The notes below the pieces were generated by a model. The model was not told where the DNA came from. It ran no database searches and worked only from the letters and a program-made list of their open reading frames with translations. Positions 138-5,948 of a DNA stretch of 18,161 nt are shown piece after piece; position 1 is the first letter of the stretch, and each line of letters begins with the position of its first letter. A program made the position numbers and the translations under genes. The stretch lies in the UHGV virus genome UHGV-0095938; one strand, written 5' to 3'. This DNA is from a virus.

Positions 138-1637
138 TTAAGTTCTCCGTGCGATGGGCCTGATTGGGGCTGGTATCTTTTTCTCTTTTGGTTTTTTGAT
201 GTCGCGCATCATTTTGGCGAAGCGGCGCATCATGTATGCATAGCGAACGGCTGAGAGAACGTCGTCGTTAAGCTTGACGATCTTCCCGTTTTCATCACGG
301 TGATAGAGGCGGAACTCCTCAAAGAATGGCTCACAGGTGTTGAATACTTTGAAGCGACCATCGAGCATCATGTCGCGCAATTCAGTGATGCCAGGCTCCA
401 CAGCATTACCGCCATCAGGCCATGTCGCATGCTCCTGCAACATCATAAAACCAGCGTCTGCATACTGCCCTTTGAGCTGCTCACCGCCGCCCTTCTCATG
501 CTGGTTTCCGTCATGAGGCCATGCGGTTGGCACTTTATGCGCCCATGATTTAACAGCTCCCCATGCCTGAACAGCTGTTTTTTCTTTCGCCTTCCACACG
601 CGTGAAACGTAGATTGTGTCTGCGTCCTTATCCCACCAAAGCTGAACCTGCGCCTGTGGGTGATCCCATCCGAAATCCATCCCGCCAATTACGTAGAAGT
701 GATCAGGACACTCGAACGGCTGACACTTAATAGTCTCTTCCGGTATCTGGAAGATTCGACCACTACCCATTGTAGGAATACCGCGAGCACGCGCTTCTCT
801 CTCATGCTCAGGATAGGATGCGATGATTTGCTCTTTCTGCTCGTCGGTATAGTGCTCAGCGTCATAGATGGTCATGTTGACCACTTTCTGCGACTTGCTG
901 GGATTCTTCAGGAACTTGGTAACAACGTCAGACATCCCCATCAGCGGGGTAAACGTCAGAATTGAGAATTGCCCGTATTTGTTGGTACGGGTAAGACCTT
1001 CGCCATAAATGCTGTATGGTGGCTCTTCGTCAAACCACACGCCGTGGATTGTGTCACCCTGCCAGCGAGCACGGCCTTGCGAGTATGGTTTGAAGTAGCA
1101 GATTGAAATGCCATCTTCAACGCCATCAGCCGTGTGATGCTTAACCAGAAGATGATCAACAAGGTTCGGAAAGAAAGGAGACTTCTTCCAGCTAATGATG
1201 TCTTCTTTCGGTATGGAACCGTAGCCTGGCTCGTCATTCTCTTCGATACGACCGCACAGGATGCGTTGAGTCGTTTTGGTTACAGTCTCGTTTGTCTCGC
1301 CGCCAATCCAGAAGACAACAGGCTCATAGAAACGCTTACCTTTCCACTCCCCACCATATTTACCATCAGCCGGATAGCCTTTTGTGCCCGGATAACGCCC
1401 GGTAAGGTGAAACGCGACTTCAGCAGCACCAGTAAATGACTTACCAAGCTGGTTACCAGCCATAAAACATCGCTCTGGATAGTCATGTCCGGCGTCGATG
1501 AACTCACGCTGTTTGCTGTATGGCGTAAATTCATATAGCAGGTGTGTGTTCCGGTAGTACTCTTCTTCTTCGAGTAGCTCGAGCAACTCGATTTGCTCTT
1601 CGTCGCTCAGGTTATCAAGAATCGCGTCCAGTTCCAC
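138..1637 (-). CDS. Terminase large subunit (P22 gp2-like)
   Basis: 499-aa ORF, the same length as P22 gp2. Overlaps the upstream small-subunit gene by 23 nt and is followed by the portal start. Confidence 0.9.
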
Positions 1638-2103
1638 GGTTGAATAGCTCCTTGATACGAGAGCGCCGCTTATCGCGATCTCCCTTATCAGGTGTCACGT
1701 CTTCAACTTGCGACTGCTCTTTGAGGCCCAAATCACGGGCGATGATGTTAGCGTTGAGAAGGTCAGCGGCTGCGCCAGAGAATTTCTGATCGTAGATGAT
1801 GTCTTCCGCTCGTGATGTGACGTCAGAAAAACCTTCCATTGACCGGAAGGTTCCCCATGTTTGCCTGGTGATATCAAGGAAGGTACACAATCCTGAAATA
1901 GTCATGGCTCGCATCTTAGGGACATTAGCCTTAATTATTTCTCCCTGATATGAAAATACCTTACCCTCCCATAGCGGGTTATCATCAGCCCACTCGAAGT
2001 ATTCACAACAAGCAGCCCACAGCGCCTCAGGCGATTCGAATTTAGGATTTCGCCCATGACTACTGCGGGCCTCCCAAAATCGGTTGCCCTTTGGTGCTGC
2101 CAT
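1615..2103 (-). CDS. Terminase small subunit (P22 gp3-like)
   Basis: 162-aa ORF immediately upstream of and overlapping terL; same length as P22 gp3. Confidence 0.8.
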
Positions 2104-2197
2104 ATTGATTATTTCCCTTCTGCTTGCTTATCCCGTTCATCGCGGAATTTGGATGGGTTGTCGAAGCCCTGAGAGCCGGAACAAACTTTGATTACCA

Positions 2198-2392
2198 TTA
2201 CTTAGCTCCTTCCTGCTTGCCTGTGTTTGATGTCGTTTCAGTAGCAGCCCAAGAGCAATTAATGCTACCCGCAACACCATATCCATAACCAGTCTTGAAG
2301 AAATTGTTGCCAGTAAATTGTTTAACAATCTTCCCGCAGCACGGGCAGCGTTGGCATTGGCAATAAGGGGATTGATTATTCCAGTGATGCAT
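2198..2392 (-). CDS. Small Cys-rich hypothetical protein (64 aa)
   Basis: Internal ATG at 2392..2390 has an AGGAG Shine-Dalgarno 7 nt upstream. Product MHHWNNQSPYCQCQRCPCCGK... has 6 Cys in 20 residues. The longer 89-aa frame upstream lacks an RBS. Confidence 0.4.
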   Translation of the reverse strand: MHHWNNQSPYCQCQRCPCCGKIVKQFTGNNFFKTGYGYGVAGSINCSWAATETTSNTGKQEGAK

Positions 2393-2765
2393 CTTGTTTC
2401 TCCTGAATGAATGGCAGGAAGTGATTAACCATCCTGTCCAGCATGTAACAGTACGTCTCGTTGGCATCTTCAGGCCTTGTCGTCACGCCGACATCAGAGC
2501 AAACGTAAAAGCAGACGTGGGCGCGCTCATGAACGAGCGTAGCGATCTGCTGATCGAATACTCCAATCAGATAGCATCGCTCACCCGTATCAGTGTTTTC
2601 ATAGTTGCTTGCAAGCCCAAGATTGAATGGCTTCTCATCCCCGCTGCCGCCAAGGAATTTATCAGCGTGCTGAAACTGTTCTCTGGTTGTTGCGAGGTAG
2701 ACGTGTGCACTTTGAAACAGCGGAATGGTGAACGCCGGGAGTTTGTGCCATTTGGCCTTAGCCAT
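2376..2765 (-). CDS. Hypothetical protein (129 aa) with an HExxH motif
   Basis: Start ATG lies 1 nt after the stop of the upstream 80-aa gene (translational coupling). Contains LVHERAHV, an HExxH motif typical of zinc metallopeptidases, but no fold could be assigned. Confidence 0.6.
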   Translation of the reverse strand: MAKAKWHKLPAFTIPLFQSAHVYLATTREQFQHADKFLGGSGDEKPFNLGLASNYENTDTGERCYLIGVFDQQIATLVHERAHVCFYVCSDVGVTTRPEDANETYCYMLDRMVNHFLPFIQEKQDASLE

Positions 2766-2766
2766 A

Positions 2767-3009
2767 TCACACTCCAGCGGTGAACAGGTCTAACGCTTCC
2801 TTCGATTTACGCACCGCTTCGATAGTGCGGGTCGTGATATCTGAATTAGCGCCGCCTGACTGGAAGTGAATTTTGAATAGCTCAAGCTTCAGCTCGTCAG
2901 TACCAATGAACTGAAATGCTTCCTCTGCGGCTGCGTTCTGGTTCATGACCAGCTTGTAAATCTCTAGCTGGAATTTCTGTTCTTCAGTCATGGGAATAAT
3001 CTCTGCCAT
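2767..3009 (-). CDS. Hypothetical protein (80 aa)
   Basis: ORF with a GGAG RBS; first gene of a tightly coupled cassette upstream of terS. It occupies the position of the small ORF that follows rha in P22. Confidence 0.55.
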   Translation of the reverse strand: MAEIIPMTEEQKFQLEIYKLVMNQNAAAEEAFQFIGTDELKLELFKIHFQSGGANSDITTRTIEAVRKSKEALDLFTAGV

Positions 3010-3361
3010 TGTTGGCTCCGTTTATCCGTTAAAAGGGATATCAGTTAAGTTATCCCGTGTAGGGTATAAGCCATTGTCGAGACCACTCATTGAATGGCCT
3101 CTGCAATAACCGATGTCTTTCCATCAGTCCGCCACCACAAAGAATCTTTTTTGCCATAAGGCTGGAGGTTCATCTTTCAGTGGCTGCCAGTGTTATTTCC
3201 CCACTTTCTGGCTTGGGTTGTTTCGCTGTACTGCCGCAACTGGTGGTGCACAGATTTAGTTAAATCTGTTCTCGCCTGAACTATCTTTTACATACCCGGA
3301 TTGTGGGGATGTAAATCACGGTTTCATTATCAAGCCCACCCGTAGATGAGCTTTGGAATGG

Positions 3362-3880
3362 TCACTTTGGCAGTCCGGGGATCGATATTTGCGCCTGCTG
3401 CTCAAGCCTTTCGATTCTTGCTATGAGTTGCGGTTTTTTGATCCTGCCCCAGCGGTTCAGCAAGCGTCCTGACATACTGGCAACATCCTTTTCCTTCATG
3501 AACTCCAGCATTAACTCGTTGTGCTCTCTTTGGTATGAGTGAGCCATCTCCATCAGCCTGTCACGCATCCAATTAAATGCTTTGATAAACGCCTCTTTGA
3601 TGGCGGCAGCTTTTTTGCCGGTAAACGACATGATGATGTACATCGCGCCGTCTTTGGAAATTTCATATTCAACATACTGATTACCCTTGTGTTCATAGGT
3701 AACCCGCGAAAAGTTGCTGGTTAGAAATTCATCCGAACAGTCTAGCTTTTCGATTTTCTGAATGATGTGGTGATGCTGCTTGTCGAAGTAAGCTGCTACC
3801 TTGCGGGAGGTTGTGATCACGCGATCACCAGAAACAACCACCATGTCCCGGAAATCGAGATTAGCCAATTGATGATTCAT
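3362..3880 (-). CDS. rha: Rha-family phage regulatory protein
   Basis: N-terminal MNHQLANLDFRDMVVVSGDRVITTSRKVAAYFDKQHHHIIQKIEKL resembles Rha-family proteins. Likely start is the ATG at 3880 (AAAGG RBS); the track start at 3916 is a GTG extension. Confidence 0.8.
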   Translation of the reverse strand: MNHQLANLDFRDMVVVSGDRVITTSRKVAAYFDKQHHHIIQKIEKLDCSDEFLTSNFSRVTYEHKGNQYVEYEISKDGAMYIIMSFTGKKAAAIKEAFIKAFNWMRDRLMEMAHSYQREHNELMLEFMKEKDVASMSGRLLNRWGRIKKPQLIARIERLEQQAQISIPGLPK

Positions 3881-4022
3881 AGCGTCTTTACCTTTTAGAA
3901 AGTGAGCCTGTCTCACAGAAAAGCCGCCCGAGAGAGGTCGCCACCTATAACGGCATTTCTCAGGCTCGCTTACTGAAAGGCTCTCGTTAATATGCGCGTG
4001 AGATGCGCTGTGAAATTCAGAT

Positions 4023-4047
4023 ATAAAAAGCCCCGCGAATGCGAGGC
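4023..4047 (-). terminator. Intrinsic terminator downstream of the lysis cassette
   Basis: On the minus strand: GCCTCGC-ATTC-GCGGGGC (7-bp GC-rich stem, 4-nt loop) followed by TTTTTAT. Confidence 0.55.
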
Positions 4048-4221
4048 TAAATCCTGGTATTTGTAATGACTGGCTCTTATCTCAACGCAGCCCCTTACCG
4101 CGCGCCAGATGCTCAATATCAAGCATCAGCAATGAGATGTTTAATCTGGATTCACTCCAGAAGTGATCATCACCCTGTCTACAGAGCCAGATGTGAAGGA
4201 TGATGAGTAAAATTATCGCTA

Positions 4222-4659
4222 TCATCGAAGGCATTGCGTCCTGATGTACTCCTGCAGGTAGTTAACCTGCGCGGTTATCCTGTCGATTCCACTTCGGAGA
4301 CGGTAATAATTGAGTTCAGCATCTGCTGTAAGTCTTGGGCTTTCTCCATCGCCCATGCTGCTGGCTCCGGTCGTTGACTTTGCACAGGTGGCGGCGACTT
4401 GCAGGCGCTTACGACCAGCAGAAACATCAGCACGGAGACTTTCGATAGTCGCGTTAGCATCAGCAAGCTCCTTTGTGTATCTGGCGTCGAGTTCTGCTAC
4501 ATCACGTTGACGCTTCTGCATGTCAGAGATGATGGATGTGGCTTTATCGCGCTGTTCTTTATAGGCGATGGCGTTATCACGGTAATGATTAACAGCCCAT
4601 GACAGACAGACGATGATGCAGATAACCAGAGCGGAGATAATCGCGGTTACTCTGCTCAT
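4222..4659 (-). CDS. Rz: Rz i-spanin
   Basis: N-terminus [31 protein letters not shown] matches lambda Rz as I recall it. Overlaps R by 4 nt (ATGA). Confidence 0.85.
4275..4466 (-). CDS. Rz1: Rz1 o-spanin lipoprotein, embedded in Rz in the +1 frame
   Basis: ORF wholly inside Rz in another frame. Has a lipobox-like LLVVSAC followed by a Pro-rich tract, as in lambda Rz1. True start may be an internal Met. Confidence 0.7.
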
Positions 4660-5132
4660 ACCTCAATCTCTCTGACCGTTCCGCCAGCTTCTTTGAATTT
4701 TGCAATCAGGTTGTCAGCCTTATGCTCGAACTGACCATAACCAGCGCCCGGCAGTGAAGCCCAGATATTGCTGCAACGGTCGATAGCCTGACGAATATCA
4801 CCGCGGTCAATCATCGGTAAAGCGCCACGCTCCTTAATCTGCTGCAGCGCAACAGCGTCCTGGCTTTTGGGAGAGAAGTCTTTCAGGCCAAGCTGCTTAC
4901 GGTAAGCATCCCACCAACGGGAAAGAAGCTGGTAACGTCCGGCTGCTGTTGATTTGAGTTTGGGGTTTAGCGTGACAAGCTTGCGAGGGTGATCGGAGTA
5001 ATCAGTGAATAGCTCTCCGCCAACAATGACGTCATAACCATGATTTCTGGTTTTCTGTCGTCCGTTATCAGTTCCCTCTGACCACGCCAGCATATCGAGG
5101 AACGCCTTACGTTGATTATTGATTTCCACCAT
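4656..5132 (-). CDS. R: Endolysin R (lambda-type lytic transglycosylase)
   Basis: 158 aa; sequence [39 protein letters not shown]... is near-identical to lambda R as recalled. Confidence 0.9.
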
Positions 5133-5439
5133 CTTCTACTCCGGATTTTTTAGCAGCGAAGCGTTTGATAAGCGAACCAATCGAGTCAGTACCGATGTAG
5201 CCGATGAACACGCTCGTTATATAAGCGAGATTGCTACTTAGTCCGGCGAAGTCGAGAAGGTCACGAATGAACCAGGCGATAATGGCGCACATCGTTGCGT
5301 CGATTACTGTTTTTGTAAACGCACCGCCATTATATCTGCCGCGAAGGTACGCCATTGCAAACGCAAGGATTGCCCCGATGCCTTGTTCCTTTGCCGCGAG
5401 AAGGGCGGCTAACAGGTCATGTTTTTCTGGCATCTTCAT
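5116..5439 (-). CDS. S: Holin S with dual-start motif
   Basis: 107 aa beginning MKMPEK (Met1-Lys2-Met3, the lambda S107/S105 arrangement). Near-identical to lambda S as recalled; overlaps R by 17 nt. Confidence 0.9.
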
Positions 5440-5685
5440 GTCTTAGCCCCAATAAGGGGATTTGCTCTATTTAATTAGGAATAAGGTCGATTACTGATAG
5501 AACAAATCCAGGCTACTGTGTTTAGTAATCAGATTTGTTCGTGACCGATATGCACGGGCAAAACGGCAGGAGGTTGTTAGCGCAACCTCATGCCGCCCGC
5601 TTTCACGAAGATCATGTGTAGAAGGCCGCAGCGTAACTATCACTGATGAATTCAGGACAGCCAGTGGCTACGACTCAGTTTGGGT

Positions 5686-5811
5686 TGTGGCGGCCGGAAT
5701 CGAACCGGCTTCCATCGGTGCGCTGCCGATTGCAGTACGCGCGGCGGTCAGCTACATGACTAGTATTTTCACTGTCGCCTATCTGCTAGCTCGCCATTGA
5801 GCTTCACCACA
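5686..5811 (-). other. tRNA-like element (possible interrupted or degenerate tRNA)
   Basis: Minus strand has a canonical T-arm GCCGG-TTCGATT-CCGGC, then 3' acceptor CGCCACA. An anticodon-arm-like ATCGG-CAGCGCA-CCGAT precedes the T-arm. A matching 5' acceptor TGTGGTG plus a D-arm-like GCTC-AATGGC-GAGC lie about 58 nt further upstream. Lacks U33 and an encoded CCA; total span is too long for a normal tRNA. Confidence 0.3.
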
Positions 5812-5948
5812 ACGATAAGAGCACTGCTCGGCACTTTTCACCAATTCCGCGAGGTCTGCGGGTTCAATGCTCTTACCTGTTATGCAAACAAAAAAAGCCA
5901 CCGTTGCAACTTAAGAGTCACTAACGGCAGCTTACCCTCTAATTATGG

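Follow-up and report, generated by a model that had tools for sequence, protein, structure and literature searches.

Between the rha and terminase small subunit (terS) genes of UHGV-0095938, an 18,161-nucleotide (nt) stretch of viral DNA (the window) that holds the late/early junction of a P22-like lambdoid E. coli prophage, we find a run of four coupled small genes that includes a predicted zinc hydrolase and an unannotated micro-gene abutting terS. The relevant genes all lie on the minus strand. The reading we favor, and consider reasonably probable, is that this junction is an accessory slot of the late operon occupied by four coupled genes, one of which would encode a predicted zinc hydrolase or effector and the last of which, a micro-open reading frame (ORF), would couple translation to terS. 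The run opens with Orf80/DUF2560 (80 amino acids (aa), 2767–3009), preceded by GGAG 6 nt ahead of its ATG, and continues with an Orf129-family HExxH protein (129 aa, 2376–2765) that starts 1 nt past the Orf80 stop, a Cys-rich protein (64 aa, 2198–2392) that has AGGAG 7 nt ahead of its ATG and shares 17 nt with the 3′ end of the 129-aa gene, and a micro-ORF (29 aa, 2109–2198) whose ATG shares one base with the stop codon of the 64-aa gene (TAATG), with AGGAAGGAG 7 nt upstream. A 5-nt spacer (2104–2108) between the micro-ORF stop and the terS ATG at 2103 forms the module boundary, and the junction distances from Orf80 through terS are in order 1 nt, −17 nt, −1 nt and 5 nt. Each of the four small genes has a Shine–Dalgarno sequence (SD), and the layout confirms an earlier note that had recognized coupled small ORFs at these positions from the DNA letters. 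The same note described all three reading frames as open around 2137–2198, and we find no stop codon in any minus-strand frame from about 2137 to 2191. Because all four small frames are kept as ORFs in other phages, where change is mostly synonymous or conservative, they appear to be more than chance open frames. The nearest complete record is an E. coli chromosome with 98.6% identity, in which the PGAP annotation includes only Orf80 and the 129-aa gene and calls neither the 64-aa gene nor the 29-aa ORF.

The 129-aa protein carries the motif LVHERAHV at residues 77–84 (HERAH codons 2517–2531) and is very probably a metallopeptidase-like zincin, a prediction based on an invariant HExxH in a confidently predicted helix and an invariant Glu that opens the next helix. 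In an alignment of 128 diverse family members sharing 23–49% identity with the query, H79, E80, H83 and E103 are the only invariant columns, and E103 (codon 2457–2459) lies 20 residues past H83, the His-to-Glu spacing of thermolysin. An AlphaFold2 model built with 43 sequences (predicted local distance difference test (pLDDT) 84.7) contains strands at residues 11–14, 20–25, 50–56 and 63–69 and helices at 28–37, 74–92 and 103–128, giving a β-β-α-β-β-α(HExxH)-α(E) topology. The HExxH motif is placed within predicted helix 74–92, where 10-residue blocks over residues 71–90 reach mean pLDDT values of 92–93, so that the motif occupies the kind of predicted active-site-like helix without which, according to the earlier note, its reading would fall, and E103 is the first residue of predicted helix 103–128. 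The published core of zincin metallopeptidases (MPTases) comprises a small sheet, an N-terminal helix, the HExxH helix and a next helix with a Glu ligand, and the topology of the 129-aa model fits this definition (PMC5512222). We propose that the protein would be a minimal gluzincin-type zinc hydrolase in which H79, H83 and E103 bind Zn and E80 acts as the general base.

Searches for remote homologs, which the earlier note had suggested together with structure prediction as a check for a metallopeptidase fold, gave a mixed outcome, with a predicted zincin core and sub-threshold SprT-like matches on one side and no significant match to a solved structure on the other. The window's 129-aa protein does not reach the gathering score of SprT-like PF10263, and sub-threshold matches to this family occur for 27 of 43 and 32 of 128 relatives, with a best E-value of 1e-4 in the set of 128. 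A PDB sequence search with the family profile returned nine top matches that are all zinc proteases, including myroilysin (E = 0.007, positions 5–112), and the same search with a shallow alignment returned nothing. Foldseek comparison with predicted viral structures (BFVD) recovered 31 phage proteins at E ≤ 1e-3, few of them with a name (SprT-like, PolyVal metallopeptidase, IrrE and Metalloprotease); comparison of the model with solved structures yielded no significant match and no solved zincin. The protein thus shares with the zincin core of minigluzincins, SprT/Wss1/SPRTN-like proteins and polyvalent-protein MPTase domains an HExxH helix followed by a Glu on the next helix, a small β-sheet in front of the helices, an N-terminal helix and a minimal domain size, and differs in having no significant Pfam or solved-structure match. 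It also has no third His, Zn-ribbon or DNA-binding region, and unlike the MPTase domains of phage polyvalent proteins it stands alone and is not part of a giant protein.

The 129-aa protein belongs to a large family that matches phrog_1365 (PHROG 1365) over residues 1–126 (E = 8.6e-36). A word-indexed search returned 206 homologs, one of which, from a metagenome, carries the depositor name 'SprT-like family protein', and an exhaustive hidden Markov model search returned 823 clusters at 50% identity, nearly all of them stand-alone proteins of 110–140 aa. Homologs have long been annotated in phages ST64T, L, epsilon34, g341c, ST104 and SE1, and our literature search found no paper on Orf129 function. 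ST64T Orf-129 (58% identity to the window protein), L Orf129, epsilon34 gp70 and g341c gp66 are of the same family and length, carry the same HExxH and NE motifs and occupy the same slot between the DUF2560 gene and terS. The window copy is nevertheless a separate allele whose nearest relatives are E. coli prophage copies with 95–99% identity, and the genes that follow differ, with Orf134 (Gp49-type) downstream in ST64T and the Cys-rich 64-aa gene and micro-ORF downstream in the window. At codon 81 (2523–2525) the window has HERAH where at least 90% of close relatives have HECAH, and because this residue varies across the wider family, position 81 is probably not catalytic. Some family members of 170–190 aa (P0116–P0120 and P0156) have a Lys/Arg-rich C-terminal tail that may bind nucleic acid and that the 129-aa form lacks. 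In another group of lambdoid prophages (L023, 5376–6014; L034 and L041–L046 are similar), the Orf129 homolog is immediately followed by a second, unrelated HExxH protein of the PhageMetallopep family (PF18894, E = 5e-43); a Phage_gp49_66 gene lies ahead of the Orf129 homolog, and DUF2280 and TerL genes come after PhageMetallopep. These loci thus appear to encode two predicted zincins in tandem ahead of the terminase, and hhalign comparison of the Orf129 family profile with the neighboring PhageMetallopep protein aligned the two HExxH motifs at only 1.8% probability.

The 29-aa ORF at the end of the run is a variant of an unannotated micro-protein of 23–30 aa that has the core GF(D/N)NPSKFR(D/E)EWD and is not a named family. 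A degenerate-codon scan for FDNPSKFRDEW located it in at least 120 IMG/VR viral contigs, and 212 of 5,426 complete E. coli genomes contain the 72-nt E. coli version. No annotated feature lies under the match in any of 30 listed E. coli records, and the same is true of the three phage records with this sequence. The commonest form is 23 codons long (MATQGFDNPSKFRDEWDKQAEGK), directly follows the Orf80 stop and ends 5 nt ahead of terS. Length variants are in-frame indels; the window copy has an N-terminal six-codon insertion and differs by 18 nt from the 23-codon form. Among the codons of the core, nine distinct alternatives are synonymous and three non-synonymous, with Arg encoded by CGC, CGT, CGA, CGG or AGG, and the Gly just outside the search pattern is encoded by GGT, GGC, GGG or GGA. 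The ORF, which the earlier note listed as a possible gene, is very likely real given this mostly synonymous variation among its homologs. The window copy keeps the core except for W22R (CGG, 2133–2135) and is the only copy with Arg at this position, which is Trp in copies with the E. coli-type core and Leu in a few distant homologs; the substitution may inactivate the micro-protein or reflect a sequencing variant.

Diverged homologs of 23–27 codons were recovered by tblastn from further enterobacterial phages. Salmonella phage Emek and E. coli phage HK544 encode MSAEGFNNPSKFRDEWDSSVKSK with its own SD, Providencia phage PSTNGR2lys encodes MATQGFDKPEQFREELDKSIPKE, and other homologs are found in Cronobacter ES2, Enterobacter MStein (N15-like), Proteus Pm34 and Proteus Brookers. 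All of these diverged copies lie downstream of a late antiterminator gene, most of them past the lysis genes. The micro-gene is spread over lambdoid phages of six enterobacterial genera, and by its codon pattern the micro-peptide appears to be under purifying selection across genera. In enterobacterial contigs the micro-ORF stop lies 2–8 nt ahead of the next start codon whatever gene follows, and because of this constant geometry the micro-ORF very probably couples translation into terS, the own SD of which is poorly spaced. Ribosomes that finish the micro-ORF would reinitiate 5 nt downstream and in this way couple the accessory run to terS. With its stop 2–8 nt ahead of the next start, the arrangement is reminiscent of short upstream ORFs that act by termination–reinitiation, and it differs from them in that the micro-ORF peptide itself seems to be selected and stand-alone copies exist. 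The micro-ORF must do more than couple translation, since it stands alone with its own SD in the phages of Proteus and Providencia and in Emek and HK544, and conservation of the peptide together with these stand-alone copies suggests that the micro-peptide probably has a further function.

The 64-aa ORF appears to be a real but rare small Cys-rich accessory gene. Its product contains CQCQRCPCCGK, a C-x-C-x2-C-x-C-C motif that precedes a Gly/Tyr/Asn-rich tail, and probably binds metal. Protein searches returned only five near-identical clusters, two of which are frameshift hybrids, and a degenerate-codon scan identified two distant homologs that keep (C)xCQRCPCCGK despite many synonymous differences. 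The distant homolog at L051 has 34% identity and occupies the same slot after DUF2560, and that at L215 lies in an early region. An allele linked to a 61%-identical 129-aa gene (L192) differs from the common allele by eight synonymous and six non-synonymous codons by hand count. We rejected an 89-aa version of the ORF (ATG 2467) because relatives have no upstream in-frame ATG. A 63-aa alternative frame with a TTG start and a hydrophobic stretch (2137–2328, minus strand), which overlaps the 64-aa and 29-aa genes, is closed by many stops in the L051 homolog and is for that reason probably not a gene; the database entry P0125 is a hybrid protein in which a frameshift joins the 64-aa and 63-aa frames. 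In the E. coli A10 chromosome (L218, 2400–2800), what looks like a deletion scar joins a truncated Rz pseudogene to the final ~47 nt of the 129-aa gene; downstream come the 64-aa gene, which is intact, then the micro-ORF and a terS of the PBSX type. The 64-aa gene can thus persist without the zincin and without Orf80, as L218 holds it intact beside the 47-nt remnant. The idea that the HExxH enzyme and the Cys-rich peptide form a system for a ribosomally synthesized and post-translationally modified peptide was rejected, as the two genes are seldom found together (14 of 80 loci) and the 64-aa gene can persist where the enzyme is missing. At L053 (~5380–5565) and L051 (~5775–5925), a very basic protein of ~50–63 aa (MPLKKGRSKKVIGENIATEIKSGKKPDQAIAIAMSKAGKKK...) occupies the position of the 64-aa gene, and its end abuts the start codon of the next gene.

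The first gene of the run is a clear member of DUF2560, with a PF10834 score of 147.7 bits (cut-off 25; E = 1e-43) that is above the gathering score and a phrog_571 match at E = 7e-41. It is 97% identical to P22 Orf80 and has the same place after rha, with the difference that orf59c and gene 3 follow in P22 and the 129-aa gene follows in the window. Our literature search met DUF2560 only as a passing mention in two papers, and literature matches to 'orf80' concern the unrelated Listeria TerI system.

Comparison of the same junction in P22-like phages, as the earlier note had advised, reveals a mosaic slot with many alternative occupants. The note's picture of a single small ORF between rha and gene 3 in P22 is mistaken, as the P22 order is rha-orf25-orf80-orf59c-gene 3. 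In phage ST64T the order is orf118-orf129-orf134-gene 3, where orf118 is a DUF2560 gene extended at its N terminus, and in APC_JM3.2 orf80 is followed by the 23-codon micro-ORF and then terS. When the window is aligned with APC_JM3.2, the genes for the 129-aa and 64-aa proteins stand out as a clean two-gene block between the Orf80 stop and the micro-ORF start. The earlier description of these two genes as extras is thus apt in the sense of an insertion relative to some relatives, and does not hold in the sense of something unusual, since Orf129 has long been annotated at this junction. Further occupants of the slot include Phage_gp49_66 (Gp49-family), PhageMetallopep and DUF551, and the window-type 129-aa plus 64-aa allele is rare, being present at full length in 16 and in part in 30 of the 5,426 complete E. 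coli genomes. In prophages with a PBSX-type terminase, identity to the window reaches the terS start codon and is gone within a few bases beyond it. The junction is an ordinary mosaic accessory slot. In the window this slot would belong to the late operon of an E. coli prophage that is P22-like (Lederbergvirus-type), between lysis/rha and terminase, and recombination would fill it with another set of small genes from phage to phage.

We examined co-inheritance in 80 viral contigs that carry a homolog of the 129-aa protein. A DUF2560 gene immediately precedes this homolog in 46 contigs and immediately follows it in 7, and in 24 none was detected. The 64-aa gene occurs in 14 of the contigs, and Orf80 is found without the 129-aa gene in P22, APC_JM3.2 and many contigs. 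PADLOC, Pfam and NCBIfam searches gave no toxin, antitoxin or defense family match for the four proteins. The slot resembles the moron and accessory slots of lambdoid late operons, such as the 'ant moron' of P22-like phages, in holding variable non-morphogenetic genes at a fixed junction (PMC2629481). It differs from the 'ant moron' in its location at the lysis/rha–terS junction, and from morons in that its genes appear to ride the late transcript by translational coupling and not to have their own promoter and terminator.

Late or structural operons are almost always the setting of the Orf129 family. Of 76 evaluable contigs, 75 have an ORF of at least 400 aa that begins 451–1,598 nt downstream on the strand of the homolog, and this ORF is TerL wherever checked. 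At least five types of small subunit precede TerL (gp3, Sf6-type, Terminase_2, DUF2280 and a PBSX-associated type). A scan of genome contigs for remote contexts gave at least seven loci, and a search for further related loci led mostly back to the enterobacterial ones. Among the matches listed, remote homologs have a Mu-F-like gene on one side and a tail terminator gene on the other in Moraxella, and lie past tail assembly chaperones in Xenorhabdus, ahead of an adaptor gene, and between Rha and terminase in Yersinia. In lambdoid phages the family sits close ahead of the terminase genes; in other phages it belongs to late or structural operons. A search of the coding strand from 1500 to 4700 found no sigma-70-like promoter, and the small genes therefore most likely ride the late transcript. 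The 129-aa protein would accordingly be made late, together with the packaging proteins, from a Q-antiterminated late transcript. Under the reading we favor, the predicted protease would most likely be a dispensable conflict or host-takeover effector that cleaves a host protein or a protein of a competing phage; it may travel with the virion, and it would be neither the toxin of a toxin–antitoxin (TA) pair nor a core packaging factor.

A more specific proposal is counter-defense, in which the Orf129-family zincin would degrade a host immunity protein or sensor, such as one that late proteins trigger, or would be packaged for injection and act at an early stage of the next infection, and we regard this as possible though clearly short of probable. 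The 129-aa gene is an accessory gene with a patchy distribution, its context points to late expression with virion genes, and zincin MPTase domains recur in phage and plasmid conflict proteins (PMC5512222). In 4 of ~11 remote contexts the Orf129 homolog lies within three genes downstream of a nucleotide-sponge anti-defense gene, namely Sequestin (L010/L011), Tad2-like (L226 and L228) and Acb2/Tad1 (L224), of which Sequestin has been verified experimentally as an anti-Thoeris sponge (bioRxiv 10.1101/2025.07.12.664507). We treat this neighborhood as a weak lead and not as a result. Several observations weigh against an effector function and against parts of our favored interpretation more generally: the anti-defense link comes from a handful of arbitrarily sampled contigs with no null model, such neighbors are absent from the window and from P22-like loci, and the protein matches no PADLOC or other known anti-defense family; a Pfam search with the window's 129-aa protein gave no match at E ≤ 10; the assignment to the late transcript has the absence of a consensus promoter as its sole basis; and the constant place upstream of the terminase would equally fit a packaging-related job.

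This last possibility, that a SprT/Wss1-like protease clears concatemer-bound or crosslinked proteins or processes a packaging or head component on behalf of the neighboring terminase, is consistent with the steady position of the gene 0.5–1.6 kb ahead of terS/terL in phages with at least five terminase types, with the weak SprT-like sequence similarity and with the Lys/Arg-rich C-terminal tails of some relatives; Wss1 and SPRTN have also been described as minigluzincins (PMC4559962). We judge it unlikely, as P22 and many close relatives package normally without the 129-aa gene, a DNA-binding domain is lacking in the 129-aa form, the association with several unrelated terminase types argues against specific co-evolution, and remote homologs occur elsewhere in structural operons. 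SPRTN and Wss1 use a third, downstream zinc-binding His, and no such residue is invariant in the Orf129 family.

Still less likely is that the HExxH protein is no peptidase, having some other metal chemistry or a structural metal site, and that the small ORFs downstream are non-functional read-through frames. The points in its favor are the missing structural match to solved peptidases, a weak NCBIfam match to the aKG-HExxH peptide hydroxylase model TIGR04267 (E = 0.032) and the fact that PGAP passes over both the 64-aa and the 29-aa ORF. The TIGR04267 match spans the motif region alone, however, and the invariant HExxH and Glu pattern and helix arrangement fit zincins, while codon-level conservation, in-frame indels and homologs in distant phages speak against read-through frames. 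Finally, a TA or obligate protease-plus-partner module made of Orf80 and the 129-aa protein or of the 129-aa and 64-aa proteins, as the earlier note proposed, is very improbable: the genes are small, adjacent and tightly coupled and one carries HExxH, as in type II TA and ImmA/IrrE-type pairs, and Orf80 immediately adjoins the 129-aa gene in 53 of the 80 loci, but the module fails on co-inheritance, with each gene found without the other, Orf80 missing from 24 loci, the order inverted in 7 and the 64-aa gene restricted to 14, and it has no helix-turn-helix partner, no TA or defense family match and no detected promoter of its own within a late lytic operon.

The genes and elements that flank the run place it between lysis and packaging functions. 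Rz (4222–4659) is followed by a terminator-like hairpin (4029–4048) with an 8-bp stem of which 6 pairs are GC and a subsequent T-run, located ahead of rha (3362–3916; PF09669 and ORF11CD3). A similar hairpin and T-run lie directly ahead of the stand-alone micro-ORF in a Proteus phage, and a T-run alone in a Providencia phage. On the other side of the run, terS (1615–2103) encodes a 162-aa small subunit of the P22 gp3 type (PF16677, E = 8e-31; phrog_606, E = 4e-71) and is followed by terL (138–1637); all of these features are on the minus strand. The spacer between Rha and Orf80 measures 350 nt and contains an element of ~200 nt (3040–3240, minus strand) that is mostly unannotated and is 92–98% conserved in at least 153 phage records, among them P22-like podoviruses (P22, epsilon34 and ST104) and lambdoid siphoviruses (HK140, mEp234 and mEp506). 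A 35-aa ORF within it (MAKKILCGGG..., 3050–3157) was fused to Orf118 by the ST64T annotators; because indels of 1–2 nt break its frame, the element is probably non-coding. Its predicted RNA fold has a z-score of −3.49, with none of 200 shuffled sequences folding as well, and it has no Rfam match; an Rfam scan of the whole window likewise gave no match, and a tRNA search found none. Phage Emek has the micro-ORF inserted in the middle of this element, and phage Huey has a 126-aa gene annotated as 'anti-CRISPR protein' inserted in it.

Taken as a set, the genes of the run represent ordinary phage mosaicism, and the significance of the analysis lies in two of its members and in the junction itself. 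For Orf129, an orphan of P22-like phages for 25 years, there is now a specific prediction of catalytic residues (H79, E80, H83 and E103) and a family of ~800 clusters. The micro-gene sits exactly at the entry to the terminase genes, has been found in ~4% of complete E. coli genomes as well as in phages from six genera, and is unannotated in nearly every record examined. A bolder and rather doubtful extension would be that Orf129-type mini-zincins make up a widespread class of effector proteases that are expressed late, may be carried by the virion and serve to disarm the immunity of the host, and that the micro-protein is a conserved regulator of the lambdoid transition from lysis to packaging, for example by tuning terminase synthesis or activity. 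The findings mark the lysis–terminase junction as a place to look for accessory, and possibly counter-defense, genes in lambdoid phages.

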